Shown: positions 4,270-54,428 of the stretch, in pieces
Position numbering within the stretch: position 1 is the stretch's first letter
Layout: every line of letters begins with the position of its first letter
Source: Massalongia carnosa
Taxonomy: Eukaryota
Length of the DNA: 64,000 bases
Assembly (NCBI GenBank): GCA_965645245.1
Contig: OZ287079.1
Location: 1,798,001 to 1,862,000, forward strand
Direction: 5' to 3'
Notes under the pieces: generated by a model
The model's input: only the letters and a program-made list of their open reading frames with translations
Told to the model about the DNA's origin: nothing
Databases searched by the model: none
Made by a program: the position numbers and the translations under genes

Positions 4270-4439
4270 TGTAACGGTTCGACCATGCGTGGTCTCGACA
4301 GCAGGACCTACAGCGAACATAGCAGGAGTCCCAGTTATAGTAGAATAGAGCTTGGTCTGCGGACTAAGTATTGTGCCTTTTGGTCGGGAGGACAGGTGGC
4401 GCAATGGTAGAAATATATTCACTATCTCGCTTCGTCACA
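4270..4439 (+). mobile_element. Solo LTR, family A (170 bp)
   Basis: TGTAAC...GTCACA; 5-bp TSD CGTAA (4265-4269 / 4440-4444); near-identical copy at 49672-49841. Confidence 0.9.
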
Positions 4440-7148: not shown

Positions 7149-7222
7149 TCCTTGATCGAAATCGCGATCAAGGGCTTACAAACAAGGAGGTTGTTAATGG
7201 GAACGGTGACACTGAAACGAAA

Positions 7223-10200: not shown

Positions 10201-11110
10201 AGTCAACGATCGCGGCAGTCAACTAACCGCTCACTTATGGAAAAGAGTTTGCGAAAGATACGGGGTGAGAATCAAATTCTCATCTGCAAATCATCCCGAA
10301 ACAGACGGTCAAACCGAAAACGCCAACAGGATAATGAAAAATTATCTCCGAGCATACGTCAATTACACACAAGACAACTGGGTGGATTATCTTTCAGACG
10401 CAGAGTTTGCCGCCAACAATCATGTAAATGTATCAACGGGAATGACTCCATTCTTCGCAGACCATGGCTTCCACCCACGCTGTGGCATCGAACCACCAGG
10501 CACATACGAAGGGAAAGGAAAAGTAGAGATACTGCATGCTGACAAAATCATAGAACGGCAAGAAGCCATGCGAACCTAGCTCCGAGATCAATTAACCTAG
10601 GCTCAGGAAGAACAAACACGACACGCAAACAAAGGCCGTCAACCTCACCCCGAATACAAAATCGGGGAGATGGTTTATGTAAACGCCAAGCACTTTGCTT
10701 CAGAAAGACCCAGCAGATCATTAAGCTTCAAGAACATAGGAAGATAATAAGAATTATCGACAATAAAGCATACGAATTAGAGATCCCGGATCAGTTAAAG
10801 AACGTCGGGCTTACCCCCATCTTTCATCCGTGGAAGCTACATCTCGCACCTTCCAACCCATTCCCAGGACAAGTCTTACCGCCTGGACCGCCCATAGCCA
10901 TAACCGAAAACGACGAAGAGGAGGCCCACGAAGAATGGGAAGTCCTCGAAATAATAGACTGCCGCGAAACAAGAAAGTTCGGCGTGCAGTACAAAGCAAC
11001 CTTCATTGGAAATTGGGATGAATGGAACGCGAACCCTTACTGGCAAGCATGGACCGACTTCAAGAATTCAAAGGATAAAATCCTCCAATACCATCGAGAA
11101 CATCCATAGA
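7223..11110 (+). pseudogene. pol: Gypsy pol (protease, RT, RNase H, integrase, chromodomain) with stops and frameshifts
   Basis: LIDNGS protease; [11 protein letters not shown] and YLDD RT; ETDSSD...YDKELLAI RNase H; HHCC and DRG...ETDGQTE integrase; EEWEVLEIIDCR chromodomain near 10930. Confidence 0.92.
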
Positions 11111-22249: not shown

Positions 22250-22508
22250 TGTCACGATTCTATCCTTTGCCTGTAGGAACTAAGCCTGATCGAGCACCTA
22301 CGGAAACCGTAGATGGAACCTGGCCGGCTGGCAGGAGTCACGAGATTGCGCGGAAAATTCTTTCGCGACCCTACTGCATGAGGATTAGAGAGCGCGTTGC
22401 TTTTTAGGAGATGAGTCCGACCTTTCGAGTCTTTCTTCCCTCTTTATCTTTATTATCTTCGTTCATGGCGTCCCTATGGCTAGTCTCTAAATTAGGTAGA
22501 CCGTAACA
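22250..22508 (+). mobile_element. Solo LTR, family B (259 bp)
   Basis: TGTCACGA...CGTAACA; shares CGTAGATGGAAC, CTTTATCTTTATT and GCGTCCCTATG with the reverse complement of 49846-50089; TSD imperfect (GCTCT / GCTTC). Confidence 0.75.
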
Positions 22509-24727: not shown

Positions 24728-27700
24728 AAGATGGGTAAGACCGACGTTCTTTAGCTGATCCGGAATTTCTAATTTGTATGCTTTATTGTCGATGATCCTT
24801 ATGATCTTCCATGGGCCTGCGTTCTTGAAACTTAATGATCTACTGGGTCTTTCGGAAGCAAAGTGCTTGGCGTTTACATAAACCATGTCTCCGATCTTGT
24901 AATCGGGATGGGGTTGACGCGTGCCGTGTTTGTTCTTCCTGAGCCCAGGCTAACTGATCTCGAAGCCAGGTCCGCATGGCTTCTTGCCTTTCTATGATCC
25001 TGTCAGCGTGCAGTATCTCTGCTTTTCCTTTCCCTTCGTATGTGCCTGGTGGTTCGATGCCACAGCGTGGGTGATAGCCATGATCTGCAAAGAATGGGGT
25101 CATTCCCGTGGATACGTTTACATGGTTGTTGGCGGCAAACTCGGCGTCTGAGAGATAGTCCACCCAGTTGTCTTGTGTATAACTGACGTATGCTCGAAGG
25201 CAGTTTTTCATTACCTTATTGGCGTTTTCGGTTTGACCGTCCGTCTCGGGATGATGTGTAGAAGAGAACTTTATTTTCACCCCGTATCTTTCGCAAACTC
25301 TTTTCGATAGGTGAGCGGTTAGTTGGCTACCGCGGTCGTTGACTATTGATATAGGGAATCCGTAAGAGGAGAATAATCTACTGGACATTGCGTCCATCAG
25401 TTCGTCCATAGAGAGAGAGGTTAGTGGTTCGTATAATCGTCTTTTCGTTAAACGATCTACTATCAGTAATATGTGCTGATAGACTCTATTTCGTCTTCGG
25501 CATTCTGGGAGGAATTCAACGAAGTCCAATGATACGTCCGTCCATTTTCTATTTGGGATGGGAAGAGGATTCAACAGGCCTTGCTTCTTGTCGTTGTATA
25601 CTTTTGATCTTCGGCATACAGAGCAGTTAACTGCGTATCTCTTGCAGTGCTCCTTCATCTCGAACCAGAAATAATTCTCTCTCATTGTTTGATACATACT
25701 TTTGTATCCTGGGTGGCCTGTAATGGTGGTTCGTGATGCTTTTGCAATAAATGTAATTGCAATGGCTCGTAATCTGGTACGTATAGTCTTTCTTTGACAT
25801 ACAGCTTGTCGTTCTCTATTTTGAGGTCCCCCATTGCTAGCTTTATCCCTCTTTTTATGAGGTTCAATGGGAGCTTTCTCAGTTCCTTTTTCTTTGCTGC
25901 TATTATGTCTTGGACCGTTTTGTCTCTTTCGTAAGCTTCTTCAATTAGTTCCTCCAAAGTCTTCGTTACTGAATTCTCGGTTTCATCAGTCGCTGGTGTA
26001 TGTTTTGCGTTGGGTTCTCCTGATTCTGTTGCGCCTTCTTCGGTGGCATTGCTTTGCTTACCTTGATCGTTATCGTCGTCGTCGTCGTCGGCGTCTGCTA
26101 TGTTCGAGCAGAACACGACTGCTAGTGCTTTTCGTATATCGTCATCTAGTTGATGCTCTTGCAGTAGCGTTTGGAATTGATGTTGCTTTCTTATATTCTC
26201 GAATCCCTTTGGGAGGTCTTGAGAGCGTCGGGTCAGCGTGTCCGGTTTCTCTCCTTGCTTTCCCGGTCGATACATTATCTTGAAATTGAATTCGGAAAGA
26301 AATTCGGCCCATCTGGCTTGCCTTCTGTTCAGCTGTTTCGTGGTCATGAAGTGCTCTAGATTCTTGTGATCGGTGTATACTTTAATAGGTTTATTAGGAG
26401 CAGCACTTGCGACCTCGGGACGCCAGACTTCGAAGCTCTTCACAATGGCGAGGAGTTCCTTATCATAAATCATATAATTACACTCGGCAGGAGTCATCTT
26501 CTTGGAGAAATAGGCTACCGATTTCAGTATTCCATCGTGCATTTGAGAGTACCCCGGCGCTAACAAAATCTGAAGAGTCAGTCTCGACCCATGTTTCCAA
26601 GGCCGGATCGTAATGTGCTCAGACGGGAGCGGTGGTGAACGCATTCTTTAAATCTTCGAAGGCTATTTTACAGTCTTCAGACCAAACGAATGAATTGTAT
26701 CTAGTTCGTTTCTTTCCTGACTTCGTCGTTATTTGCTCGCCCTTTGTTAACTCTGTTAACGATCTCGTTCGTTGCGAGAACCTTGATATAAATCGTCGGT
26801 AGAAATTTGCAAAGCCTAAAAATGCTTGCACATCTTTAACGGAGCCTGGGGTCTCCCATTTTAGAATCGCCTCGATTTTCTCCGAGTCCATCTTTATTCC
26901 ATCGGTGGTAACTATCAACCCAAGATATTTCACTTCTGTCACAGAGAATTCGCATTTGTCTATGTCCACTTGCAGTCCTTTCTCCTTTAATCGAGTTAGA
27001 ACTTTTAGCACTTGTTCGGAACGCTCTTCTTCGTTTTCGCTGTAAATTAAGACGTCGTCCAAATACGCCGTGCAGAAAACGTCTAAGTATTCTCTGACTG
27101 TATCGTTTATGAAGCTTTGAAAGGTTCCTGGAGCGTTGCAAAGACCGAACGGCATTACCAAATATTCGAACTGGCCATATCTAGTATTGAAAGCTGTGAG
27201 CCACTCATGGCCTTCCTTCATTCTCATACGATTGAACGCAGTAATCACATCTAGCTTTGTGAACTTCTTGGCTTATGAGAGTTTCCCTAATGTCTCATTT
27301 ATCGACGGTATTGGATATCTGTTCTTGATCGTGATGGAGTTCAAGGCTCTATAATCTACGCAGAATCTTAAACCACCCCCTGGTTTTCTAACTAGAAGGA
27401 CCGGGGCTGCTGCGCTTGAAGAACTAGGACGGATGAAGCCTTTTCCCAGATGCTCATCGATGTATTTTTTAACCGCTTCCAGTTCTTGTTCTGACATGGG
27501 TTTATAGTTCCTTACATATGGAGCTTCTTTTCCTGTTTTGAGGATTATCGAATGATCCTCCTTTCGATGTTCAGGTAGTTCATCCGCCTTGTGCTTCATG
27601 AAAACATCTATTACGCTGTGATAGACTGCTGGGACTCTCTTCAACAACTCCTCGCAAGTGTATTCCGGTTTGCCTTTCATGAACTTGTCATAATCTACTG

Positions 27701-28756
27701 ATGTTACAGCCCCTGTGGTTGTCGCACAACAAGCTTTTGTCTTCTCTTGAGAAATCCATAGATATCCTTCATGATCCTTCTTTTTAGCCATGCGAAAGAA
27801 GTGCTTCGCGTTAACTGGGAGAACTTCTATGTCCCCCTTTGGCTCAATCCTGTCTTTGACCTTGCTACCTATGGCAAACTCGGTGCAAGTTATCCCCCGT
27901 GTGAGACATCCTATTTCTAAACAATCTGAAGAGTTGAACTTCATTGTTCGCTTCTTTCCAGTTAATACTCGGGTTGTGGGTTTGTAGCCACCCATCCTCT
28001 AAAATAACTGAGTACGTATGAAGTTTTGCTAAATAGCACCGGACTTTTTCTCCATGATCTCCGATCTTTATCTCGATCAGAGCAGCTTTGGTGAGAAGTT
28101 GGACTACTTCTCCGTTATCAAGAGTAAGTTTCACCTTCTTGTCCAGTTTGAAGGTGTTTAATTTATGAATACGCGCAAAGGATTCGTCAATGAGTTCGGC
28201 TTCACTTCCATTATCGACAAGTAAACGGGTTTTAATCCCAGCTATGCTAGTTTTAAATACTAAATGCTTGCCCTCGATTTTCTTTTCAGTATCGTGGACA
28301 GCACAAGTAGAGACCCTAACACTCTTTATTTCAGCTTCACCGTTCTCATTAACAACACCCCCCTCTGAGAGTCCTTGATCGCGATTTTGATCAAGGACTA
28401 AGCTTTCCCCGAGTCCGATTCAGAACCGGAATCGGTTTCTATTGTTTTCATGGCGTTGAGTTTCCTCTTTTTGTGCTGAGGACAGATTGAATCGCTTCCC
28501 CGATGTCCCGATCCCCTGCAAGCCCAACATCTACCTTGAGCGGACAGGGTTTCCCGATCGTCGTTCTCCAGTTTCTTTGGATTCGGGTCTGGATCGTACC
28601 AAGCACCTGTCCAACCTGTTGGTTTCACGATCGTCGGGGCGGGTTCGGTGCTCGGATCCTCGGTTTTCTTGATTTGATGAGAGGGGGAGTATGAAGACTT
28701 TCCCTTAGTTGATTGTCATCCCAAGAAGTTGCTCCCTTTGCCGGCATTCTTTGACG
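24728..28756 (-). mobile_element. Gypsy copy 2 (same lineage as copy 1), truncated at both ends, no LTRs
   Basis: gag C-terminus, PR, RT, RH and IN fragments highly similar to 6900-10820; frameshifted. Confidence 0.9.
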
Positions 28757-28928: not shown

Positions 28929-29086
28929 TGTAATGATTCGATTATGCGTGATCCGGACGTTAGAACTTATCGTGCACATAACGCGAATCACTAATTATAG
29001 TAGATTAGAGCTTAGTCTGCGGACTAAGTAGTTTGCCTTTTGCTGGGACTATAATAGAAATCTATTCACTCTCTAACTTCGTCACA
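28929..29086 (+). mobile_element. Solo LTR, diverged relative of family A
   Basis: TGTAAT...CGTCACA; shares TAGAGCTTAGTCTGCGGACTAAGTA; TSD GTAAC / ATAAC (1 mismatch). Confidence 0.75.
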
Positions 29087-29574: not shown

Positions 29575-29918
29575 GTAATGGTAATCAATAACCTTGACTT
29601 ATCAACGTGGCGATCGGCGTTAGTATCTTATGTATTCTCAACTATACCATCTACTTACCACCAGGCATACTCTTCCTGGTGGTTGGTTTTCTTATCGCAC
29701 CAGTTCTGGCACCTGGTCCGGGTATTCTGTCGAGTGTTCGGTTTGGAATTCGCGCAGGTTTGCGCGTACGCTTGCGCGGAGTCTTTGGTGCCATATCTAA
29801 AATCAAACAGGCAAGCAGACAGGTTATCAGTGGTCGCGCGTGGCAACTAGGTTAGGTTGGGTATGGTTAGGTTCAGTATGACTAGGTTGGGTTGGCTAGT
29901 TTAGGTGGAATATGTATG

Positions 29919-32900
29919 TGTTGAGAATTGAGCCGAGATGTCTGCTTATTAATAAGAGCACTAACCGAATGCGGATCAAGCACTAAGGGTTATTTCGGCC
30001 GTGGCAACACATCACTAATCATTCGAGATGTCATCTATCTGCCAGCTAAGGGAGGCAAAACGGAATATATTGTTAGATGGTGAGGCTACCATTGGTTAGA
30101 TGGTCAGGCTACCATCAATATAGGCATCCATCGTGAGTCACACGGGTGTCTACCAGGCACCTATGGAGGTGCCTAACAGGCAGCTATGGGAAGCCTACAG
30201 CATTACTGCTGTGTGACTGCTATAAAAGCAGGTAGATAGCCCACATAGATAATAACCCTCAATGACATGTATGCTTCTTATTTGCCCTACTTCCGTTTCA
30301 TGATCAATAGCCTGGTGTTTCAACAGGTTATGAGCCCGGTCAGCTATTAGAGAAATAAGAAGCCATTGATATTCGACTTCACCCTAATTCGTTTCGTCCC
30401 AATGTCTTCATCAGCTGCGTCAACGTCGACCACCCCGCTGGGGTCCGGAAAAGGGCCGGAAGAAGAGTCGACGAGTGAGAATGTTGATGGCCAGTATAAG
30501 GCTGGTGTGGGATTAAAAGTTGTGGGGTATCGTCGACGGTAAGACAGCACGCCCCAGCGATTCTAGACCGAATGATCAGACGTCTTGGGAGTTTGATAAT
30601 GCAACGGTTATGACCTACATCATGACGTCTGTAGACGACGAGCAGTTGCAGCACATCGTACTCTTGGACACCGCCAAGGAGCAGTGGGACACGTTGTATC
30701 GAATTCATCAGGACATAGGAAAAACACGGCTGGTTCCCCTACTGCGAAGACTGTCAGCGTATCGAGCTGGACCTTCACAGACGGTGGAACAGATCGCGTC
30801 GGAGCTTAGAAAGATAGCTTCAATCATAGGAGAAATCAGACTTGAGGAAAAGCCTTCGGATTTCTTTCTAGCTCGTACCCTTCTAGACTCGGTGGACGGC
30901 AGCGCGTATGCAATGGCCCGAGCCCTGTTGGAAGAGAAAGACGATTTGACCATGTTGATGGTCATCGAAAAGTTCAAAGAAGTTGAACAGAAGAACAAGG
31001 ACAATGAGGTAAACATTCACGAAGTTGCTAATAGGGCGTCATCCGATCGAAAGTTCAGTGGAAAATGCTACCATTGCGACAAAGTGGGGCATATAAAGAC
31101 CAGCTGTTTCTTATGGTTGAAAACGGATGAGGGCCAGAAGCATCAAAAGGGGAGTGAGAATACTGATCATATGTCGAATAAAACCCGAGGTAAATCATCG
31201 AACGGGGGACGGGGCCGAAAGCCGAAGAAGTCGGAAGAGGCACGACTGACCCGAGAGGATGAAGATGACGCTCGATCCGAAGCCAGCGATGCTTCAGAGT
31301 ACGCCAGGATGGCTGTTGAAGACGCTGAAGAATATATTCAGGCCGCCCAATTCGAAGCCCAGGAGCGACTGCACGAATGGGGGCTGGATCGGAAGCCCAG
31401 GCCGCTCGATTTGGCGCGATTGCGCAAACGGGGGCTGGCACTCCATCGAAGGAATGGATTATTGACTCCGGAGCGAGTCGGCACATGACTCCTGATAGGG
31501 GGTTATTCGTCAGCATGATGCTGATTAGGACGACAGTGAGGGTGGCCGATGGTACGGTCATTTTGTCAATTGGTAGAGGAGACGTCCTTGTACGGATGAG
31601 AAACGGGGAGAAGATACGACTGACTGAAGTGTTATTTGTCCCCGAACTCGATACCAACCTACTGTCGATACGAGCTCTTCAGGCGAAGGGAATTTCCGTC
31701 CGCTTCGGCCTGAATGGAGTCGAAATCACCCGCGGTGAGGCCTTATTGGCCACCGGAGTGTTGTCTGGATCGTCGTACCTATTGAGGCCAGCCAGAGAGG
31801 ATGTGGCCCTGATTACTGAGGTAACGAAGGAGAAACACTCACCGAACCCGGCTCGGGATGATTATTTGTTATGGCATGCGCGAATGGGGCATGTCAGTCT
31901 CAAAAGACTAGAGAAACTTCCATCATTGACCACCGGAACGGGTGCGATCAAAGGAGTGGATGCAACCGCTCATTCTGATAAGTGCGTCACCTGCAAATAT
32001 ACCAAAATGACGAAGGTAATCAGTCGAATGCCGCCATTGAAATCAACGCGACGAGGAGAACGTACGTTTTCGGACTATTGGGGCCCGTACAAGGTAGCGA
32101 ATCTTCAAGGATCGCAATATTTCCTGTCATTTGTCGATGATTTTTCTCGTCGATCTGAGGTGTATTTTGGATCGAGGTTGACCCTGAAAGAAAACTTTCA
32201 ACGATATAAAGCGAAGTTCGAAGTCGAGACTGGAGAGAAGCTAGGTCTAATTCGTACGGACAACGCAAAGGAATATCACGCTTTGGAAAAAGACCTTCTG
32301 AAAGAAGGCATTCAAATGGAGTTTACAGACCCGTACACCCCTGAGCAAAACGGGGTCGCTGAGCGTCTGAATCGAACCCTAATGCAGATGGTTAGGGCTA
32401 TGCAACTATGGGCTGGATTGCCCAGGGAATTTTGGGGGGAGGCCTTGATGGTCGCGAATTATCTTCGGAATCGGCTCCCAACCAATACACACGGAGGGAA
32501 AATGACTCCATACGAGGCCTGGTACGGCCGAAGACCGGATCTGGGCCACTTACGAACCTATGGATGTTTGGTTCATGCCCGTATCCCCAGCGAAAGAAGA
32601 GACAAAATGGATGTCGTCTCATTTCAGGGAGTATTCGTCGGGTACCACTCATCAAAACAATATCGAATTTATAACCCCAAAACGAAGAAAATCGGATGGC
32701 ATTCGAGCCTTGATTTTTTCGAGGACTGGCCTGGGGGACCATTGTTAAACGTTCCTACCGAGTCAGGGACATGGGAAATTGACACAATTGACAGCGATTA
32801 CGAGCCCGACAAGTATCTCGACAATCAACTCATCACCAACGAGGGGGGAGATGAGGTCATTCGTGATAACGGCCAAAACAAGAATTTATCAGTAGGGGCT

Positions 32901-34265
32901 GACCCCACATCTCAAATTGAAAATCCTGAAGAGATTACATCGCCAGTGGGAGCTGATCCCGCCTCTTCAAATGAAGGAATACCCACGATTGAACTGAATG
33001 CTCAGTCAAACACAGGTATCCCTGCAAGTATCGAAGGCAAATCGCCCAGAAAAAGGACTCCTACAACGACTGCATTCACCCGATCAAAGAGAGAGAGAAA
33101 GCCGTACGACAAATACGCATTCGACAATAATCAAGCTCTTCAAACAAATGACGATCATGATCCCACTTCGTACAGTGAGGCCGTCAACGGAAAAGACTGG
33201 CGAAAATGGAAAATAGCCATCAAAGAAGAACTCGATGCCCTACTGTCAAACGGAACATTTTTGGTGGTAAATCAGCCCTCGAATCGAGACCTGATCACGT
33301 CCAAATGGGTATTCAAGGTAAAACGTCACGGAATGGTAATGAAAATTTTCGGGGGAGCGTGCATCTGGCGAAGTGCCAAACAGCGATCGACGTCATCATC
33401 GAGTACCGAAGCCGAATACGTCTCCATGTGCGAAGCCGGAAAACAGCTCGTTTGGGCCAGCAGATTAATGAGTCAATTGCATCTGCGTCCCAACAAGGCC
33501 ATTGACTTGAAGGGTGACAATCAGGGATGTTTAGCACTTATTAAAAATCCTGAACATCACTCTCGTACAAAACACATTGACGTTCAATATCACTACATTC
33601 GGGAAATCGTCGACGATGGGTTAATTCGAATTTCCTACGTCCCCACGGCCGAAATGTTAGCTGACATATTCACCAAGCCTTTGCCACAGGCATCATTCGA
33701 ACGGCTCCGGGCAAGCCTAGGGGTGAGGATAGTTAGCTAAGGGGTTTGGACGTACATCGGCCGTTTGGCCCATGGCCCAGGGGACAGGCCCCGAGGGCGA
33801 CACGCGATGGTTGGTACAGCGAGGGCATGAGGCCATCCAGACAATCTCGGAGTGGGAGTGTTGAGAATTGAGCCGAGATGTCTGCTTATTAATAAGAGCA
33901 CTAACCGAATGCGGATCAAGCACTAAGGGTTATTTCGGCCGTGGCAACACATCACTAATCATTCGAGATGTCATCCATCTGCCAGCTAAGGGAGGCAAAA
34001 CGGAATATATTGTTAGATGGTGAGGCTACCATTGGTTAGATGGTCAGGCTACCATCAATATAGGCATCCATCGTGAGTCACACGGGTGTCTACCAGGCAC
34101 CTATGGAGGTGCCTAACAGGCAGCTATGGGAAGCCTACAGCATTACTGCTGTGTGACTGCTATAAAAGCAGGTAGATAGCCCACATAGATAATAACTCTC
34201 AATGACATGTATGCTTCTTATTTGCCCTACTTCCGTTTCATGATCAATAGCCTGGTGTTTCAACA
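29919..34265 (+). mobile_element. Ty1/Copia element 1, internally deleted (RT missing)
   Basis: 407-bp LTRs (29919-30325, 33859-34265) differing at 2 C/T sites; PBS GGTTATGAGCCC; PPT GGAGTGGGAG; flanks GTATG / GATAC do not match. Confidence 0.92.
30402..33740 (+). pseudogene. Copia gag-pol, frameshifted, with an in-frame deletion of most of RT
   Basis: CYHCDKVGHIKTSC, WIIDSGASRHM, integrase (TDNAKEY, PEQNGVAERLNR); KWVFKVKRHG joins directly to MVMKIFGGACIWRS (RNase H region). Confidence 0.88.
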
Positions 34266-34293
34266 GATACAAAATAACCCACCCCACAAACCC

Positions 34294-37665: not shown

Positions 37666-38046
37666 TGTCACGGTTCAACCATATCCACCCAAGGCCAATC
37701 AAAGGAAAGTACGGCATCTGCCGGCGAACTAACCGCTTCCGTTACTCAACCCTTTTAGCAATCATAGGGGCAATCAACGGAAGTCTGAAAGGACTGAAAG
37801 GGACGTATCGGAACGACCTTCTAATGCAAACACAAATGGATGAAAGGGATAAAGGACAGAAAGACTGTTTGACTAAACTGTTCACTTATTGATGAAGACA
37901 CAAGGAGCTGGCTCGGGCCAAGCGAAAATCTATATAGACTCCTAGGGAGGGCAGCCTTTACTTGTTTCCTTTCTGCATCATTGATATTTTCTAGTGAATA
38001 GCTTCCCAGTAGATAGTCAATTCCACATCCTGGTTGAACCGTCACA
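37666..38046. mobile_element. Solo LTR, family C
   Basis: TGTCACGGTTCAACC...GGTTGAACCGTCACA; second copy at 48812-49162; flanks GGTAA / AAACT do not match. Confidence 0.85.
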
Positions 38047-42125: not shown

Positions 42126-42940
42126 CCTTGTACTTTGCCACACTTTCGCTTATTAAAACGATTACTGGTAGTGTGGCACGATTATAACTGATGCGATATC
42201 CCTCTCGCTGGTGAATTGGCACCCCCCTCCCGCACTAGCTATAGATGGTTTAGAGCTCCCGAAACCTTAAATATCTACCAATCAAATAAGCGGCTTGCTA
42301 CCCCTTTCTGACCTTTTTTAAGAATTGCCCAATCAATTACTATCTACCTGAACTCCATCTACTTCTTTCAATTCAAATGTATTGCCGCCCAGCAGGCCAG
42401 ATTTTTACAACAAGGTCTGATTGGATGACATCCTCCACACGCCCATCTTGTTTGAGAACCTCGCTGCTTTCTTTTCCTGCCATTAGCGTCTCTTTCAGCC
42501 AAAGGCTCCCCTTTTCTTTTGGAGGACCTTGTTTTATTGATATTGCAGGGCTCGCATTTCCGCTTCTTCTCCAGATGAATATAATGGTGCTCGGGGGTAG
42601 AAATAAAGGCTTAGAGTTGGTCTGAATCCTTATCTTTGACTCATGAAGTCGGGTTTGTCCAGCGGGATTCTTCATCAGACTGAGGGCAAGATGATGAGTA
42701 ACATCCGTACGAGTGAGTTTTTTTCCTTCTTTTCTGAAGTCATCAATTAGATAGAGCTTGTATTCATTGAGCGCAGCAGCATCTAACAAAAAAATAAATA
42801 GTGGCCACCAATATCGATCGCTTCGGCGTTGATAAGAATAAACCGCTCTCTGCTGAGCCTTTCCATCTGACCCACCCATGTGAAGATTATATTCTCTGAC
42901 TGGTGCGGGAATCGGTAGGCCTAAAGGCCATGAAGGTATT

Positions 42941-45900
42941 TGTGAAACTAAGTGATGATCTTAGGTGGTGGCTCAGGGGCCTGAGGGATAGCATGGCCTT
43001 ATTAGGCCTAGTGTGGGCTAGCTCGCCGCACATAATGTAATATTAGCTACTGAGATAGAGCTTTCCTTCTAGACATTCATATTATCAAGAGTTCACCTCT
43101 ATTCACGAACCTCACTAGGTTCAACAGTTATGAGCCCGGATTGATCTGCAATCAATTCATCTTTCTATTAAATTCTGGAGACGCCATTAGCCACGTTTAA
43201 CATTGCCACGATTTGTCCTAAGGTTAGGACTTGGCCTGAGTTTTAAACAGCGAAAACCTCCATTTTTAACAGCCATTATTTTAGCAATGGCTGCTTCTTT
43301 TGACAACAAGCATAGGCTCATCCTTAACGACCCCAAGGATTGGGTTGGGTGGCTTTCTTACATCAGGAAATCCGTCAACGGCGAGACCTGGAAGCTGGTT
43401 GACCCAGATTTGCCAGAAAGACCGGCAAGGCTTCAAATGCCAGCTCTTCCGGCAAAAGCCACCGTTAATGAGGAAACTGGGCGGATAAGCAGTGCTGATT
43501 TAGAAGTATGGAAGATGAACAAATTATATTACGACGAGGAAAAGGATTTGTATGAAAAGCAGGACAAAGCATTGACCAGGGTGCATACCCTTATTCTCGA
43601 GTCAGTTTCAGCACGGATGGTGAATCATACGGCCTATACGGAACAGGACCCATACGACACCCTCATAGCTCTGAAACAACGGCTTAAACCTTCTAGCGCA
43701 AGCCTTTCTCTCGAAGTGGAAAGGAAGTTCCATCGTCTGGCCAAAGGACCTGGAAATCAGAACATAGAAGCTTGGCTAGATGAGTGGATAGATATGTATC
43801 ATGAGGCCAAAAGGCGAAAGATTTTCGAGATCACTGGCGAAAGGGCCATCCGCGATTTTTTGCTAGCTGTCAAGACCTTCAACCCTTATTATGCTAGCAA
43901 TCGACGGGGATTTCGTAAGAACATCGAGATACAGAACCAAGGCATGGCCGAGAACCCAATTCTAGGCCTAGGCCGTCAGCAACAACAATTCACCATGGAA
44001 CAGGAGATAGAGAGCCTGCGAGAGGATTATCGCGAAAATCAGACCTTAGCATTAAGAAACCCGGCCGCCCTAGCAACTCAGGCAAAACCTACGCTCAAAG
44101 GCAGAGATCAGGAAGGGAAGGACAAGGATAATAAATGCAGGGAAGGGAGGGGGCCCATGTGCCTCTGTGGTGATAAGATGTTTTATTCCAATTGTCCCTA
44201 CCTCGTTCCTAGCAAAGCACCACTAGGATGGAAGGAAGACCCAGAGAAAAGGAAAAAGGTCGATGAGGCATTAAAAAATAAAGAAACGAAAGAAAGGGTC
44301 GAGGGCTTTCTGAAACGTCAGGCCGAAAAGTCAAAGGCATCTTCATCGTCTGAAACAGCCAACACTCCTACAATTGCATTAAGGACTGAAGGTGGTGGTG
44401 CATTCGTCACGACTGATAATTCTGCATTTGCAACAGACATTTCTGGCATGGAGACTCTGCTAATTCATGACGCGGCCTCATCAGTGCACATTTGCAATAG
44501 GTGGTCGGCCCACCTCTATAAGAAAATCAGGGACTCACATAGCGATGAGTATCTGCAATCAGGAACTGACAAGGTCAGAATCGAAAGCTGGGGGGTGATG
44601 CACACCGCCTTTGAGACACCTAATGGACTCTATGGAGCATCTCTTCAAAACGTGGCCTATGCAGCAAATTTTATGACGAGTATTGTTTCAGGTGCTCTTT
44701 TAGAAAGCAAGAACGTAAGCCTAAATTCCAGAGGACCTCATTTGTTCACCGGCGACGACCCTACTAAAGTCGGATTTTGCCTCCATCGCCATGGATCATA
44801 CCTTACTTTCTCGGCCACAGGACTCCCACATCCATTTCCAGAGGGGGTTGCGAAAATTGAGCCGGAACCTGAATCAACAGCAACCAATCCTTCGGCCTAC
44901 GCGACTGAGGCTATACGGAGCAAGGCTGCAGAGGAATGGCATAGGATAATGGGTCACCCATCTGGTGAAACAATCAGCCACTTGGAGAAATCAACAGAGG
45001 GAATAAAAGTCCTGGAGTCGGAAGTCCCTAAAACAAATCAATGCGAGACGTGTGCGTTGACCAAAAGTCAACGAATAATCTCTCGATCCACCAACAAATC
45101 AGAAGATAAAACGGAGCCTTTTCATCGTATATCTATAGACCTGATGCTTTTCGAGACGTCATTAAATGGGCACGAATGGGCGACCCACATAGCCTGTATG
45201 GCTACTGACTTCAACATTTTAGAGACTCATCGCAGCAAGTCTGACTGCAGAGAGTTCATTTTGAATACGATCGCTATGATAAAACGGAGGTTTAAACGCG
45301 ACGTCGTGTTCATACGTTCTGACAACGAGGGTTCTTTTAACACCGCTTTCAGAGATGAAATCAAAGGCCTAGGAATCACCTTGGAACCTAGTAGTCCTGA
45401 TACGCCTGAACAGAACGGGCATGCGGAACGCAAAGGCAAGATGTTGGCTATAAAGGCAAGGGCATTGCGGATAGAGGCCGAGTTGCCTCACTACCTGTGG
45501 GTTGAGGCTATTCACACTGCTTGCTATTTAGCAAATCGCACACCTATGGCGAAACATAACTGGAAGACGCCTTACGAACTAGTCACCGGCCAAAAGCCTA
45601 ATTTATCACATTTGAAGGTCTACGGATGTAAGGCCTACGCGTTGAAACATCACATACCAAGGAAGCAAAAACTGGAACCTAGGGCCCATATAGGATATTT
45701 GGTAGGCTATGATTCAACAAACATCTTCAGAATTTGGATACCATCAAGGCGCAAAATCATACGATCAAGGGACGTCCTTTTCGATGAGGACGAGGTCCAT
45801 AGCCTTGTTGACCCACCAGACCTGTTGCATTTCCTCTCTACCACCGGAGATAATGCACCCTACATCATTACTGATCGCATGCGAAATGCACTAGCTGAGT

Positions 45901-48327
45901 TAGATGCTGAGGACGAAAAACATCGTAGAACCTTTGACGAATTATTTGCAAATTCACCTGCTATCGCGGAAAAGCCTGTTATAACGGAAAAGCCCGGTAT
46001 AGGACTTGATGGGCCATCTAGAAAGAGGCCTCATGACACAGCACCAAACATCCTTCCTACACCTACACCGTCCCTTAGTCCCTCACCAAGCACACTGGGG
46101 GGTGATGGTGATGATGCTACAGGTCTCCCACCGATAATGAGGCGTGCACGTGCTATGAGGCCATTGAGGTCAAGGGACATAGCACCACAGGCTCAAACGA
46201 TTTCAGCAGACCTAGACGACGACCACATCTTACCTGAAGGGTCAAAACGGCAAAGAACCACGCGTCAAAATGTGTACGCAACACAGTTGGAGGAAGTTGG
46301 TCAAGGATCAACAGACCCTTTTCACGCCTCATTTGCAGCCCTCACCATAGGTTCGGCCTATCGTCCAGCTTTAGCATTTACGACCAGGATAGCCTCATCC
46401 TCGGAGCGACCTCATACTCGTCCACATCGAGACAATATGCCAGCCGCGCCGAAAGGGTTCAAGGAACTAGCTAGGCACCCATACTGCGAGGCGTTCAAAG
46501 AGGCAATGCGGGTGGAGATAAAGGAATTACAACGCAAAGGTACGTGGGAAGAGGTGGCTAAGGATGAGGCCATACACAAGCAATCAGTTCCTACCATGTG
46601 GGTCTACAAGTATAAATTTGATGAGGACGGCTGGCTTGTTAAACATAAGGCGCGTTTGGTGGCTAGAGGGGACCTTCAACATACGAATTTCGATACGTAT
46701 GCAGCCACATTAGCTGCACGCCTGTTTCGATTCCTGATGGCCCTCGTCGCATCATTTGACCTAAATACGAGGCAGTACGATGCAGTGAATGCATTTGCTA
46801 ATTCACTAATCAACGAAACAACATACTGTAGGCTTCCACCAGGATGGACTGGCAATTCGAACGTTATATTACGTCTTCTCCGGGCCCTATACGGGCTAAA
46901 ACAGTCACCAGCACTATGGCACAACGATTTATCAAGCACTCTAATAGAGCTAGGGCTAGAACCTCTCCCTGGGGTCGAATGCATTTACACCAACAGCTAT
47001 ATGATAGTGTTTTTCTTCGTAGATGACATATGCGTCATCTATGATAAACGCTACTCGGCATACGTTGATGCTTTCGAAGCAAAACTCTTTAACAAATATG
47101 AAATGAAGGCCTTAGGTGAAATTGAGTGGTTCTTGGGCATACGGGTCACTAGGGATAGGGCCTCAAGGAAACTGTGGCTATGCCAGGACAGTTATATCGA
47201 CAAAATAGGTGCAAAGTTCAACATCACCGGGGTCAATGCAAAGGCCTCGCCGCTACCAGTTGAAGATATTCCCAAATTCAACGGCATCGCCACTGCACAA
47301 GACATATTTCAATACCAAACGAAAGTAGGGCACGTCAATTTCCCTGCGGTTATTACAAGGCCTGATATAGCAAATTCGGCCTCCAAATTATCAGAACATT
47401 TAAACAACCCCTCACCCAGACACATCGAGTTGGTGAATAGGGTGATTGGTTACCTCGTTTCAACAAGGACCTTATCAATCATGTTCGACGGTCGCATAAT
47501 CATACCAAGAGAAGTCATACCAAAAGAAGTCCTGATAGTGAGCAGCGACTCCAGTTTTGCAGACGACCTGCAGACTAGGTACAGCTCGCAGGGCTACGCA
47601 ATGAAGCTATTCGGAGGCCTAATAGACTGGAAGGCCAACAAACAGAAGACGGTTACGCTATCGTCAACTGAGGCTGAATTGCTGGCTATTTCTCAGACCG
47701 CGAAAGAGACTATATGGTGGTCCCGTCTGTTTGAGTTGATTGAATTTGACCTAGGAAATGATCTCACCATTCAATGTGATAACCGTCAAACTATCAGAGC
47801 CCTAATATCAGAAAACCCCCGATTCTCGACTAAGCTAAGGCATGTGGATATTCATTCACATTGGCTACGGCAAGAAGTGATCAATAAGAGGATCTCTTTC
47901 AACTGGGTGCCATCAGCTCAAATTTTGGCCGATGGGTTCACTAAGGCCCTACCCATTCAGCGGCACAAAGAATTCATCAACCTACTAGGACTAGTCAAGG
48001 CAGAAGGGCCTAAACAGCCGTCTCAGGAAGGGCCTAAAAAGGAAGGGCCTTGAAAGCATCAAACTTCACGATAGCATCAGAACTCAGCAAATAGGATCAG
48101 AAATCAACTTCTACACTAATCGCATAGAAGCTGAAGGGGTGTGTGAAACTAAGTGATGATCTTAGGTGGTGGCTCAGGGGCCTGAGGGATAGCATGGCCT
48201 TATTAGGCCTAGTGTGGGCTAGCTCGCCGCACATAATGTAATATTAGCTACTGAGATAGAGCTTTCCTTCTAGACATTCATATTATCAAGAGTTCACCTC
48301 TATTCACGAACCTCACTAGGTTCAACA
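42941..48327 (+). mobile_element. Ty1/Copia element 2, full-length and apparently intact
   Basis: Identical 186-bp LTRs (42941-43126, 48142-48327); TSD GTATT; PBS GTTATGAGCCC; PPT GAAGGGG. Confidence 0.96.
43287..48053 (+). CDS. Copia gag-pol polyprotein (~1588 aa from first ATG)
   Basis: Uninterrupted ORF: protease (HDAASSVHI), WHRIMGH...CETC, RSDNEG/PEQNGHAER integrase, KARLVARG/ALYGLKQSP/FVDD RT, SDSSFAD/SSTEAE/ADGFTK RNase H. Confidence 0.95.
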   Translation: MAASFDNKHRLILNDPKDWVGWLSYIRKSVNGETWKLVDPDLPERPARLQMPALPAKATVNEETGRISSADLEVWKMNKLYYDEEKDLYEKQDKALTRVHTLILESVSARMVNHTAYTEQDPYDTLIALKQRLKPSSASLSLEVERKFHRLAKGPGNQNIEAWLDEWIDMYHEAKRRKIFEITGERAIRDFLLAVKTFNPYYASNRRGFRKNIEIQNQGMAENPILGLGRQQQQFTMEQEIESLREDYRENQTLALRNPAALATQAKPTLKGRDQEGKDKDNKCREGRGPMCLCGDKMFYSNCPYLVPSKAPLGWKEDPEKRKKVDEALKNKETKERVEGFLKRQAEKSKASSSSETANTPTIALRTEGGGAFVTTDNSAFATDISGMETLLIHDAASSVHICNRWSAHLYKKIRDSHSDEYLQSGTDKVRIESWGVMHTAFETPNGLYGASLQNVAYAANFMTSIVSGALLESKNVSLNSRGPHLFTGDDPTKVGFCLHRHGSYLTFSATGLPHPFPEGVAKIEPEPESTATNPSAYATEAIRSKAAEEWHRIMGHPSGETISHLEKSTEGIKVLESEVPKTNQCETCALTKSQRIISRSTNKSEDKTEPFHRISIDLMLFETSLNGHEWATHIACMATDFNILETHRSKSDCREFILNTIAMIKRRFKRDVVFIRSDNEGSFNTAFRDEIKGLGITLEPSSPDTPEQNGHAERKGKMLAIKARALRIEAELPHYLWVEAIHTACYLANRTPMAKHNWKTPYELVTGQKPNLSHLKVYGCKAYALKHHIPRKQKLEPRAHIGYLVGYDSTNIFRIWIPSRRKIIRSRDVLFDEDEVHSLVDPPDLLHFLSTTGDNAPYIITDRMRNALAELDAEDEKHRRTFDELFANSPAIAEKPVITEKPGIGLDGPSRKRPHDTAPNILPTPTPSLSPSPSTLGGDGDDATGLPPIMRRARAMRPLRSRDIAPQAQTISADLDDDHILPEGSKRQRTTRQNVYATQLEEVGQGSTDPFHASFAALTIGSAYRPALAFTTRIASSSERPHTRPHRDNMPAAPKGFKELARHPYCEAFKEAMRVEIKELQRKGTWEEVAKDEAIHKQSVPTMWVYKYKFDEDGWLVKHKARLVARGDLQHTNFDTYAATLAARLFRFLMALVASFDLNTRQYDAVNAFANSLINETTYCRLPPGWTGNSNVILRLLRALYGLKQSPALWHNDLSSTLIELGLEPLPGVECIYTNSYMIVFFFVDDICVIYDKRYSAYVDAFEAKLFNKYEMKALGEIEWFLGIRVTRDRASRKLWLCQDSYIDKIGAKFNITGVNAKASPLPVEDIPKFNGIATAQDIFQYQTKVGHVNFPAVITRPDIANSASKLSEHLNNPSPRHIELVNRVIGYLVSTRTLSIMFDGRIIIPREVIPKEVLIVSSDSSFADDLQTRYSSQGYAMKLFGGLIDWKANKQKTVTLSSTEAELLAISQTAKETIWWSRLFELIEFDLGNDLTIQCDNRQTIRALISENPRFSTKLRHVDIHSHWLRQEVINKRISFNWVPSAQILADGFTKALPIQRHKEFINLLGLVKAEGPKQPSQEGPKKEGP

Positions 48328-48811
48328 GTATTTGATCGGGCAGAAAAATGATGTGAGCGTACATTGAGGGATAGTATGTTATGGGTATGATTGGCTGAAC
48401 GGAGTCTTCTGGAATTCCATGCCTTATAAGCGGATGTAAATAGTACGAGTCATCAAGCTCCCGAGGATGATGTCGAGTAGTCATCGACTGAACGGTGTTA
48501 TTGTACACCCATCCCAAACAGAGCACCTCATCCACAGTCGTACTGGCCCGAAGTCCCCAATGTTTGGATTTAATGGTCATATCCCGCAAAGCCAACAACT
48601 TCGCGGGAAATTTGGAGCCTTTTTTAGCTGTTCCACATGCAGCAATTCCTAGTGATCGACGAGCTTTGAATAGCTTTGTGCTGGTAAAGAAGTTGTCGCA
48701 GAAAACAGTGTAATTCAGTGGTTCAGGAAGTGTTTTACAAAGCTGAATTATCAGCAAAGCACTATCCGAAAGGCCATCCTTTGCTAAAAAGCCCAGTTGT
48801 CTAGCGGTTTT

Positions 48812-49162
48812 TGTCACGGTTCAACCACATCCACCCTGCCGGCGCACTAACCGCTTCCGTTACTCAACCCTTTTAGCAATCATAGGGGCAATCAACGGAG
48901 GTCTGAAAGGACTGAAAGGGACGCATCGGAACGACCTTCTAAAGCAAACACAAATGGATGAAAGGGACAAAGGATAGAAAGACTGTTTGACTAAACTGTT
49001 CACTTATTGATGAAGACATAAGTAGCTGGATCGGGCTAAGCGATTATCTATATGGACCTAGAGAGGGCACCCATTGCTTGTTTCCTTTCTGCATCTTTGA
49101 TATTTTCTAGTGCATAGCTTCCCAGTAGATAGTCAATTCCACATCCTGGTTGAACCGTCACA
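48812..49162. mobile_element. Solo LTR, family C (second copy)
   Basis: Matches 37666-38046; TSD GTTTT / GTGTT (1 mismatch). Confidence 0.85.
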
Positions 49163-49671
49163 GTGTTTAACTGACTGATTTTTGTTACCTGATACGTGTT
49201 AATCATTGCAGTTTATGTTGGGAAAAGCTATAGAAAACAGAGGGTTTTTATAGCAAAAACACGAGGTTTCAGGGAATTATGTCCGAAAGAGATCACGATT
49301 CAGAGATCAAAAGGGGAAAATAAGATATAATTTTTTAGAAAGACACTAACTTTGGAGGCAAATAAAAAAGATATCAAGTAGTTATATTTTAAACCCCTTT
49401 CTAGCCTGCTTTGAGGTTATTTGTAGAGTATGACGTGATCCACCTTCGACTTTAATAAGCTGCTCATCAATTGATATGATGCTTCCTGGTTGATAGTACT
49501 TCAACGAGGCCTGACGAAAATCAGTAGCAAGAGGTTCCAACTTCTTCCACCATCGAGGTTCTGTACGTCCATTATTAAGCTTTAAGAATCTCTTGATTTG
49601 TTGAAATCGTACGAGGGACATGGCTTCTGAAATAGATAGGAAAATAGGCTTGTCGGGGCATTGATTCCAGT

Positions 49672-49841
49672 TGTAACGGTTCGACCATGCGTGGTGCGGA
49701 CGGCAGGACCTACAGCGAACATAGCAGGAGTCCCATTTATAGTAGAATAGAGCTTAGTCTGCGGACTAAGTATTGTGCCTTTTGGTCGGGAGGACATGTG
49801 GCGCAATGGTAGAAATCTATTCACTATCTCGCTTCGTCACA
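49672..49841 (+). mobile_element. LTR family A (left half of composite insertion)
   Basis: Near-identical to 4270-4439. Confidence 0.9.
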
Positions 49842-49845
49842 GAAA

Positions 49846-50089
49846 TGTTATGATCTACCTAGAGACAAGTCATAGGGACGCTAGAAACGAATACAATAAA
49901 GATAAAGAAGGAAAAAGACAATCGACAACCAGAACCTTCCCCTATACATCCTCTACTGCGCTAGTACCCATGTGGTATAGTCGTCATGGAAAATTCTTGT
50001 AGCTGCGGGAACGAAATCGAAAGTGCCTGCGTGTTCCATCTACGATTGCCCTAGGCGGTGTCGAAGTCGTGCCGTGTAGATTCGTGACA
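49846..50089 (-). mobile_element. LTR family B (right half of composite insertion)
   Basis: TGTTATG...CGTGACA; reverse complement related to 22250-22508. Confidence 0.8.
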
Positions 50090-52752
50090 CCAGTAATCTT
50101 CTGTGGCAGACGCATGATCCATGCCAATCAACAAAAGAACGCCCAAAAAAACCTCAATTTCTGGTCCAATGGTGTCATACCATGGGCGATAATTATTCTA
50201 CTTTTCTTTCTCTGTATGGTCGTGGGCCTTGATGTTCGTGTGATAAGCGATAGTCAGACAGAGCTGAGTCGTAATAAAGAGCTGAAAAAATCCAAAAGGA
50301 GTATCAACAAGACCATTCACCAGCGATCTTGGAGGTCTATCATCAATTGAAATAGGTTTGTAACTCGAAAGAGGAGTAGGAATGTCCGCCAAGATGCTTT
50401 TAACAGTGCGTTTGCTATTTATCTTATATTGCTTTGCTGAAACGGGGGATTTGTCTGAAACACTCGGAATTTCTTCTTCATTCAGTCCCATGACGCTGAA
50501 TAAAATATAATATAATGTTTGAAGCAATTGATGGTAGGGAGATTTATTTTCTAATGATAATAATGGTGATGTAGAACGTAAACAAATTTTGATGTTCTTG
50601 ATTACTAACACTATGCGACTAACAGCTAGTGTGGGAGAGAACTGATGCGTATGCGAGATAATTGTAGTACCTGCATGCGCTTGAGCACGTGCATAGCCTT
50701 GGCTCTATCAGCCTGTCATCTATCCCGCCGTGCCCGCATGATGGGCCTTCCATCGGCGAGTCCGTGCCTATATTTTTTTATATAGATGAATCGTGCTTTT
50801 GGAAAGTCTTGGGCGACGAGTTTCTGACCGAGCCTAGGTGCGGTCCTGAGGACGGTAAAGATAGGGGGTTTCAGTCTTATTCAATACAGCCCTGAGCTCT
50901 AATGTCTACAATCTTCCGACGCAGGAATGCCCGGTAACACGCTAGCAGTCTCTACAGGCGCGAAGGATTTTGGCACGATTTCTGGCAACCAAGGCGCTGT
51001 GATCGGTGACGTCTCAGGCTATGCGAAAGTGATTGGTTTGCGTCCTGTTCACATCGATATTGATCTTATGCTAAATCCTGATTAGGCTCTCAGACAAACA
51101 ATATTGTTCAATATCCAGGCAAGTCGCCATTCGCAATGATATAGCGCCCTGTGAGCCAAGGCTGATAGCATTCTGCGTTTGTAGAAAGACCCGATACCCC
51201 ACCAAGCCCATCATCTGCTGTTCCTTTCCGCCGCGACCCTGATTTCGTCGATCGCGGAACGCTACTTGATCAGATCCACGAAAAGTGCTCCGCGCCAGCG
51301 TCAAGGGTAGCGCTTGTCGGCCTAGGCGGCGTTGGGTAAGCCAAAGGGCCTCAGGCTAGTTCTAATAGCTTACTTTCGCAAAGAAAGTCGCAGCTTGCCA
51401 TCGAGTACTGCTATCGAATCAGAGAGCAGTTGCCGACGACGTGGGTGTTCTGGATACACGCTAGTAATGCAGCCCGTATCGAGCAAGGTTATCGGGATGT
51501 TGCAGAGCAAGTCAAGATTCCTGGCAGGGAGGACCCAAAGGCGGACATATTCCGGCTAGTTGACAAGTGGTTACGCGACGAGAAGAACGGAAAGTGGGCT
51601 CTGGTCCTCGACAATGCCGACGAAGCTACTGTGCTTTTCGAAACTCATGCTACAGGCCAGAAGGCGCAGGATGGCGGCATTAGAAGCGGGCTCACGCAAT
51701 CACTGTTAGCATATCTACCTCAGAGTCGAAACGGCTCGATTCTCATCACCTCCCGGACTAAAAGCGTGGCATTGCGGCTAGCAGAAGAAAGCGACATAAT
51801 ACCGGTTGAGCCGATGGACGATACACATGCGCTAGCGCTCCTTGAAAAGAAGCTGGGAGAACAGATGGACAGAGATGATACTGCTGAGCTAGCAGCAGCA
51901 CTCGAATTCATGCCGCTTGCCATCGTTCAAGCGGCCGCATACATTCGACAAAGAGTACCAAGATATTCTGTTCGACAGTACATAAAAGAGTTGTATAAAA
52001 ATGATAAAAGAAAGACCAGTCTGTTGAATCACGAAGCGGGACATCTTCGCAGGGACCTGGAGGCTAAAAATTCAATCATTATAACCTGGCAAATATCGTT
52101 TGATCATATTCATCAGATCAAGCCTTCGGCAGCTAATCTGCTGTCGCTTATGAGCTTTTTCGATCGACAGGGAATTCCTGGGGCATTACTCAAGACACAA
52201 AACGAGGCAGGAAATGAAAATACGGGAGAAAATGCTGGAAATGACGAAGATGATGACCACGAAGACGATAGCGATAAGGATACCGTATCCGATTCCAGCG
52301 TCGACGAGTTTGAAGACGACATACTTGTCTTGAGAAACTTCTCGTTCATCAGCATCAGCATGGATGAAACCACCTTTGAGATGCACGGGCTAGTGCAGCT
52401 AGCGATCAGAAAGTGGCTAGAAGCATCCAATCAGCTCGAAAGATGGAAGCAGCAATACATCAAGAATCTCTGTACAGTATTTCCGACGGGAAATTACGAG
52501 AATTGGACAAAGTGTCAAGCGCTTTTTCCTCACGCGAAGTCGGCAGTAGCGCAGGAGCCAGCTGTCGAAAGCTCATTACAAGATTGGGCCTTGATACTAT
52601 ATCACGCTGCATGGTATGCGTGGGCGAAAGGGAGTTACGCTGAAGCAGCGACAATGGCCCTAAAAGCAACAAGAACCAGGCAAAAAGTGCTTGGTCCAGA
52701 GGATGAAGAGACATTGAATAGTATGACTATGCTAGCCTTGGCATACAAGGGA

Positions 52753-54264
52753 CAAGGACGATGGACGAAGGCCGAAGAGCTGGAGGTGCAAGTGATGACG
52801 ACGAGAAAGAGGGTGCTAGGGGCGGAGCATCCAGACACGCTGAGTAGCATGGCCAATCTTGCGTCGACGTATTCGAATCAAGGACGATGGACGGAGGCCG
52901 AAGAGCTGCAGGTGCAAGTGATGGAGACGAGAAAGAGGGTGCTAGGGGCGGAGCATCCAGACAAGCAGACTAGCATGAACAATCTTGCGTTGACGTATTC
53001 GAATCAAGGACGATGGACGGAGGCTGAAGAGCTGCAGGTGCAAGTGATGGAGACGAGAAAGAGGGTGCTAGGGGCGGAGCATCCTTCCACGCTGACTAGC
53101 ATGGCCAATCTTGCGTCGACGCACAGGAATCAAGGACGATGGACGGAGGCCGAAGAGCTGGAGGTGCAAGTGATGGAGACGAGTGCGAGGGTGCTAGGGG
53201 CGGAGCATCCAGACACGCTGACTAGCATGGCCAATCTTGCGTCGACGTACAGGAATCAAGGACGATGGACGGAGGCCGAAGAGCTGCAGGTGCAAGTGAT
53301 GGAGACGATAAAGAGGGTGCTAGGGGCGGAGCATCCAGACACGCTGACTAGCATGAGCAATCTTGCGTTGACGTACACGAATCAAGGACGATGGACGGAG
53401 GCCGAAGAGCTGCAGGTGCAAGTGATGGAGACGATAAAGAGGGTGCTAGGGGCGGAGCATCCTTCCACGTTGACTAGCATGAACAATCTTGCGTTGACGT
53501 ACACGAATCAAGGACGATGGACGGAGGCCGAAGAGCTGCAGGTGCAAGTGATGGAGACGATAAAGAGGGTGCTAGGGGTGGAGCATCCTTCCACGCTGAT
53601 TAGCATGAACAATCTTGCGTCGACGTACAGGAATCAAGGAAGATGGACGGAGGCCGAAGAGCTGGAGGTGCAAGTGATGGGGACGAGTGCGAGGGTGCTA
53701 GGGGCGGAGCATCCTTCCACGCTGACTAGCATGGCCAATCTTGCGTCGACGTATTCGAATGAAGGACGATGGACGGAGGCCGAAGAGCTGCAGGTGCAAG
53801 TGATGGAGACGAGTGCGAGGGTGCTAGGGGCGGAGCATCCTTCCACGCTGACTAGCATGGCCAATCTTGCGTCGACGTATTCGAATGAAGGACGATGGAC
53901 GGAGGCCGAAGAGCTGCAGGTGCAAGTGATGGAGACGATAAAGAGGGTGCTAGGGGTGGAGCATCCTTCCACGCTGACTAGCATGAACAATCTTGCGTTG
54001 ACGTACACGAATCAAGGACGATGGACGGAGGCCGAAGAGCTGCAGGTGCAAGTGATGGAGACGAGTGCGAGGGTGCTAGGGGCGGAGCATCCTTCCACGC
54101 TGACTAGCATGGCCAATCTTGCGTCGACGCACAGGAATCAAGGACGATGGACGGAGGCCGAAGAGCTGGAGGTGCAAGTGATGGAGACGAGTGCGAGGGT
54201 GCTAGGGGCGGAGCATCCAGACACGCTGACTAGCATGAGCAACCTTGCATTCACGTGGAAGTCT
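52753..54264 (+). repeat. 12 near-identical 126-bp (42-aa) TPR repeats
   Basis: CAAGGACGATGGACG recurs every 126 bp from 52753 to 54139. Confidence 0.95.
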
Positions 54265-54428
54265 CCAAAAAAAACTTTCGCACTTTTTAGCTAGCACTAG
54301 AAATTGCATTCGTTACCCATACAAGCCCTCAATAGTCATTGTGATCACGTAGAATTGCTCCCCGACTCTGTAGCTATCTTGGCCGAAAGTTATATCGTCC
54401 CTTCTGTTGTGGCTGCATTGTGGCAACC

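Follow-up and report, generated by a model that had tools for sequence, protein, structure and literature searches.

Within a 64,000-nucleotide stretch of Massalongia carnosa DNA (contig OZ287079.1, positions 1,798,001 to 1,862,000; hereafter the window, whose own numbering is used throughout), our analysis revealed two unrelated long terminal repeats (LTRs), one of a family that we call A and the other of a family that we call B, lying end to end inside a single target-site duplication (TSD) in a decayed piggyBac transposase remnant. The locus carries one insertion footprint and two complete LTRs in an inverted arrangement, with outer ends of the same type. We propose a model, to which we assign a probability of about one in two, in which DNA copies of two retrotransposons from different families were integrated jointly, in one event, and this unit is what was left after both had collapsed.

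The composite insertion starts with a left TSD copy, CCAGT (49667-49671), followed by a 170-bp solo LTR of family A (49672-49841, TGTAACGG...TCGTCACA, on the plus strand, which is its probable sense strand), the 4-nt spacer GAAA (49842-49845), a 244-bp solo LTR of family B (49846-50089, TGTTATGA...TTCGTGACA, on the minus strand and thus inverted relative to A), and the right TSD copy, CCAGT (50090-50094). This layout reproduces, at identical coordinates, that of the original prediction, an earlier reading of the same DNA from its letters. Both LTRs are intact to their terminal TG and CA, at the junction as well as at the outer ends; A is flanked by CCAGT and GAAAT and B by AGAAA and CCAGT. Public contigs from four runs (X1 to X4) were aligned to this DNA, one public run that contains the stretch being labelled as a lichen metagenome; statements on individual contig records concern the 32 pieces listed, with 7603 further ones beyond them. 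The spacer lies outside both LTRs, as the A copy at 4270 stops at CACA and the B pieces in public contigs begin at 49846. A-GAAA-B is the only adjacency of one LTR end with another LTR start that was found in the 64-kb window.

The host of the insertion is a decayed piggyBac remnant on the minus strand (49163-50704), which carries stops elsewhere but whose frame is continuous over the excised site: after in silico deletion of 49672-50094, the minus-strand frame is open and reads ...ATEDYWNQCPDKPIF.... The right flank matches positions 34 to 62 of the Pfam DDE_Tnp_1_7 profile, ending at the W, and the left flank matches positions 70 to 139; the two flanks are thus colinear pieces of one piggyBac transposase. 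Moreover, an empty site was found in a 703-bp public contig (record 3 of X1), which aligns to 49409-49666 and then directly to 50090-50513, and which represents a piggyBac relative that lacks the insert and has CCAGT only once. A match between 5-bp flanks would by itself arise by chance once in 1024, and it is the restored frame and the empty site standing alongside this match that make the TSD genuine. Altogether, one TSD, a precise empty site and a restored host frame were all found, and the 418 bp plus one CCAGT constitute one insertion footprint with a genuine 5-bp TSD. The earlier claim that removal of the unit and one CCAGT restores the piggyBac frame was therefore upheld by the frame itself, by the colinear Pfam flanks and by the empty-site contig.

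A and B come from LTR families that are independent of each other and unrelated in sequence. Their similarity is nil on either strand (local-alignment z scores of -0.9 and 0.3 against 200 shuffles), and the idea that they might be diverged copies of one LTR was discarded after comparison of A with B, with a B-like copy and with a third family, C, on both strands, which gave no similarity. In the window, a second solo LTR of family A (4270-4439, plus strand) is 95.3% identical over 170/170 positions and has its own TSD, CGTAA, on both sides, and a diverged A-like solo LTR (28929-29086, plus strand, 74% identity) is flanked by GTAAC and ATAAC. The B-like solo LTR (22250-22508, plus strand and thus opposite to B, 259 bp) is flanked by GCTCT and GCTTC; it has ~85 nt in common with B at one end and ~13 nt at the other, with both termini in common, and BLAST of B against it aligned 80 nt at 80%. 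Hence, of the earlier claim that each family also occurs alone in the window, the part on A stood, whereas that on B did not, the copy at 22250 being a diverged relative only.

The public contigs gave the same picture of independence. Contigs ending exactly at 49672 numbered 36 in X2, 20 in X3 and 7 in X1, and those ending exactly at 49841 numbered 33 in X2, 18 in X3 and 12 in X4. Agreement with the flank consensus at the A boundaries was merely 0.39 to 0.5, which places A copies at many different loci. B pieces, for their part, stop at 49846 or 50089 within longer contigs (records 6, 13, 23 and 27). A and B were mostly found apart, and the summed depth of A relative to B ranged from ~4-fold to >20-fold depending on the run, depth not being equal to copy number. 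Thus, for A as for B, TG...CA termini go together with dispersed copies that have constant boundaries and differing flanks. The original prediction had named an outcome that would count against it, namely, that the 418 bp are the regular LTR of one family; this outcome is rejected by the independent boundaries of A and B in public contigs. Exact-pattern scans of metagenome contigs for the A 3' end and for the conserved A core, and of viral contigs for the A core and for the conserved B end, gave 0 matches each.

Seven solo LTRs of these families are present in the 64 kb, and all window copies of these families are solo: the window holds no full-length A or B, and neither a TGG-type primer-binding site (PBS) nor a purine tract adjoins any of their LTRs in it. 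As every window copy is solo and none lies next to a PBS or purine tract, collapse to a solo LTR is the rule for these families here. Family C is represented by a solo LTR on the plus strand inside the piggyBac remnant that also hosts the A-B unit, at a distance of 500 bp from the latter (48812-49162, flanks GTTTT and GTGTT, with the terminal motif common to A and B that is described below), and by a second copy at 37666-38046. Both C copies bear 16-nt terminal inverted repeats; the second has a 30-nt internal insertion and unmatched flanks, GGTAA and AAACT, as expected after inter-element recombination. An A-A head-to-tail joint (49841 to 49672) was seen in one contig of X2 and one of X3, from related genomes. 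In the diverged A-like copy, 17 of the 18 transitions relative to A are G>A or C>T, alongside 14 transversions, a bias that fits decay by deamination or by a process resembling repeat-induced point mutation; C>T and G>A were also in excess among repeat copies in all four public runs.

The orientation of the two LTRs can be read from a motif at their ends. Exact matches to TGTMACGRWTC number 6 in the window, where 0.16 would be expected, and 0 of 100 shuffles reach that number; five are on the plus strand (4270, 22250, 37666, 48812 and 49672) and one is on the minus strand (50089). Every match is one terminus of an LTR, belonging to the two A copies, B, the B-like copy and the two C copies. Families A, B and C, whose bodies are unrelated, thus have an 11-nt motif in common at one end. 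This common terminal motif suggests that related integrases lie behind the three families and, further, that one integrase lineage may serve several LTR families, some of them perhaps non-autonomous. The matches at 49672 (plus) and 50089 (minus) show A and B to be in opposite orientations, so that the unit has ends of one type on its outside and the other two ends meet at the junction; the inverted B of the original prediction is thereby borne out by a motif common to three families. As for the nature of these ends, a TATA-like TTATAGTAG lies near 49745 in A, with the portion that is conserved in the A-like copy (the 3' two-thirds) coming after it, and the portion of B conserved with the B-like copy is on the junction side. 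Judged from this TATA-like site and from the conserved parts, the outer ends would be unique-3' (U3) ends and the junction would probably join two unique-5' (U5) ends.

We propose the following course of events. Two linear complementary DNAs (cDNAs), one of A and one of B and both presumably full length, would have been present together, with integrases that were related or shared. The motif-bearing end (TGTMACGRWTC) of each cDNA would have been used in a single concerted integration at CCAGT, giving the 5-bp duplication, and the remaining two ends would have been fused by host end-joining, before or just after integration; in an alternative order, the intasome would first have taken one end from each molecule, with joining afterwards. 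A few extra bases would have been kept at the joint, where GAAA can be read as 2 + 2 nt of unprocessed ends. Later recombination between each element's own LTRs would then have left solo A, GAAA and solo B. A more specific form of this model, in which the locus is a fossil of intermolecular concerted integration, one intasome having paired the motif-bearing (probably U3) ends of cDNAs of two families while the distal unprocessed ends were end-joined, is put forward tentatively and is rather less probable than joint integration in general.

Several published properties of integrases and cDNA ends are compatible with this model. Ty1 integrase inserts any fragment ending in TG..CA, foreign ones included, with a 5-bp TSD (PMC2939329), and short donor DNAs that mimic the element ends suffice for concerted integration in vitro, U3 donors being preferred over U5 donors (PMC8487063). 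Extra terminal bases that need 3' processing are borne by Ty3 and retroviral ends and not by those of Ty1 (PMC8487063), and at the junction of a 2-LTR circle the implied number of extra bases is 4, as opposed to 2 at linear ends (PMC11054761); taken together, these two points make GAAA fit 2 + 2 unprocessed bases. The complete LTR ends at the junction and on the outside likewise favor the joining of cDNAs, since the natural termini of a cDNA supply them, whereas a deletion would have to produce them by chance. The original prediction had already read the unit as a heterodimer of two cDNAs: its single footprint, unrelated LTRs, inverted B and non-sequential junction all held in our analysis, which thus supports that reading in part.

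Other points weigh against joint integration. The arrangement is known from a single locus, and 49841-49846 is bridged by 0 of the 32 contig pieces listed (7603 further), so that the junction rests on the assembly, although a site left unbridged by the listed pieces is not thereby shown to be absent. Of the bases that the original prediction expected beside the parent LTRs (GA next to A, TT next to B), the public contigs offer weak hints only, with two X3 contigs that carry A plus GAA before diverging and four X1 contigs, having one flank in common, that carry AA plus B. We considered whether these loose ends (49844) might be flanks of parent elements and rejected this, as the contigs are few, the sequences are neither PBS- nor PPT-like (PPT, polypurine tract) and chance matches are expected. 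The model also requires two later collapses to solo LTRs, and GAAA could equally well be repair filler. Finally, full-text searches in a collection with few subscription journals surfaced no in vivo precedent for such an event and no account of an end-to-end union of different families within a single TSD; cDNA multimers are a subject of older work in yeast.

Among the rival explanations, the most probable invokes two separate integrations at the same 5-bp target, in either order, after which the middle CCAGT was replaced by GAAA through a small deletion with filler. These families insert often and nest, with A or B joined in public contigs to other repeat copies and to other piggyBac positions (50616 to 49672), their seven solo LTRs crowd into the 64 kb, and other transposable elements (TEs) are known to have inserted more than once at one site (PMC5932611). 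However, either order predicts A-CCAGT-B, as the original prediction had argued, and both orders fail when followed base by base, the inner element never having matching 5-bp flanks. According to that same source (McGurk and Barbash 2018, PMC5932611), a double insertion retains a copy of the target site at the junction; the junction here reads GAAA, which has nothing in common with CCAGT and is one base shorter. The replacement would, moreover, have to be bounded to the base by the right end of A and the left end of B, with both outer CCAGT copies left intact, and A elsewhere shows little target specificity in its flanks (agreement of ~0.4). We therefore regard sequential insertion as unlikely. 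Two simpler histories were also tried and rejected: had one element been nested in the other, LTR-LTR recombination would have eliminated the inner one, and had one cDNA been inserted into the other, A would lie between two stretches of B. An assembly artefact, that is, a chimeric join of two high-copy repeats, would be in keeping with the high copy of A and B in the public runs and with a junction that no listed contig bridges. Such a misjoin needs an A copy preceded by piggyBac...CCAGT to be joined, in frame register, to a B copy followed by CCAGT...piggyBac, and it would still require that two paralogues had each received an insertion at exactly the same site; the window, furthermore, traverses many repeats without gaps or N. 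On this balance, an artefact is decidedly improbable.

Two further explanations receive even less weight. The unit might have arrived as such, either as a mobile composite or as the ordinary 418-bp LTR of one family: taken as a whole it has TG..CA ends, imperfect terminal inverted repeats (11/16) and a perfect 5-bp TSD, and any linear DNA with TG..CA ends is insertable by Ty1 integrase (PMC2939329). Yet copies do not share the full 418 bp. A stands alone at 4270 with its own TSD, contigs that stop at the edges of A number in the dozens and have unrelated flanks, B pieces run from 49846 in longer contigs without A, and the ratio of A to B depth, which is not a copy number, shifts between runs over the range given above. 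The unit, in addition, lacks both PBS and PPT and has its LTRs in opposite orientations, which leaves no RNA-templated route for copying it, and the window holds no second LTR end-to-start adjacency. The self-mobile composite mini-element that the original prediction had kept as an alternative is thus unlikely, A and B being mostly found apart, and we consider an arrival as one unit very improbable. The capture of retrotransposon cDNA at double-strand breaks is known in yeast, and an integrase-independent origin, with two cDNA fragments ligated into a staggered break whose fill-in made the 5-bp repeat, would rely on it. Against this, the outer ends are exact TG and CA with the family motif, and the duplication is of 5 bp, as around the other A copy; exact ends, motif and 5-bp duplication together are hallmarks of integrase, as end-joining usually trims ends. 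Capture at a break is accordingly given as slight a chance as the composite unit.

Compared with known systems, a joint integration of two cDNAs comes closest in some respects to the 2-LTR circles of retroviruses and Ty3-type elements, in which complete LTR ends abut as CA, a few bases and TG, four such bases fitting 2 + 2 unprocessed nucleotides joined by host end-joining (PMC11054761 and PMC8487063). Unlike such a circle, which derives from one element, joins U5 to U3 and is an extrachromosomal dead end, the present junction combines two unrelated families, joins ends of the same type (U5 to U5, if our assignment is right) and sits in the chromosome between integrated outer ends. Tandem TE dimers (McGurk and Barbash 2018, PMC5932611) also place two elements next to each other at one target site, but these keep the target site in the junction, in contrast to the GAAA, the different families and the inverted arrangement found here. 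Tandem LTR-retrotransposon arrays (Morales-Diaz et al. 2025, PMC11899658) resemble the unit in being complex LTR structures in a single TSD that may stem from one insertion; they involve one family, head to tail, with a common internal LTR, whereas the unit has two families in inverted arrangement and no LTR in common. Lastly, the work on Ty1 integrase in vitro and on the integration of foreign fragments (PMC8487063 and PMC2939329) describes a reaction that needs only suitable ends, takes up DNA unrelated to the integrase's own element, yields a 5-bp TSD and prefers one end type, a preference matched by the two motif-bearing outer ends of the unit. Those experiments were done in the test tube or under overexpression, with the integrase of one element, and among the papers searched none describes a natural genomic product that involves two families.

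The surroundings of the unit are those of a transposon graveyard, the window containing gypsy, copia, pogo/Tc5, Tc1 and piggyBac remnants together with a TPR-rich NLR-like gene, a composition that suggests a fungal genome. A copia element that abuts the piggyBac remnant (42931-48329) is apparently intact: its open frame (43191-48053) spans 1620 aa, and its LTRs, of 198 bp, are 98.5% identical. A second copia element (29918-34266) has 409-bp LTRs of 99.5% identity. Both carry GTTATGAGCCCGG just inside the 5' LTR, a sequence that presumably resembles a site primed by initiator tRNA-Met through its anticodon region. One gypsy family is present in two copies (6909-10823 and 24728-28637), 87% identical over 3.9 kb, in opposite orientation and 14 kb apart, with no recognizable LTR pair at either copy. 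To the right of the unit, a 984-aa open frame (51340-54294) encodes a DUF7779 domain and at least 12 TPR_10/TPR_12 repeats; the DNA repeats within it are offset by multiples of 126 bp and are 86 to 94% identical. This is a fungal NLR-like gene with a highly homogenized repeat array in a transposon-rich setting.

As it stands, the unit is a single decayed locus among dead transposons and is without functional consequence for the host. If the joint integration of an A and a B cDNA is true, however, integrase complexes in living cells can synapse the ends of two DNA molecules, even of different families. In its more specific form, with one intasome, the model would show that an integration complex may be common to distinct families in vivo and that these may be inserted into the genome while covalently linked. 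End-joining, which is the normal source of dead-end 2-LTR circles, could then also yield insertable heterodimers. The arrangement offers a signature that is searchable in long-read genomes, namely, a complete LTR end, 0 to 6 nt and another complete LTR end within one TSD. Joint integration would lead directly to composite and inverted structures of TEs, the seeds of rearrangements and new repeats.

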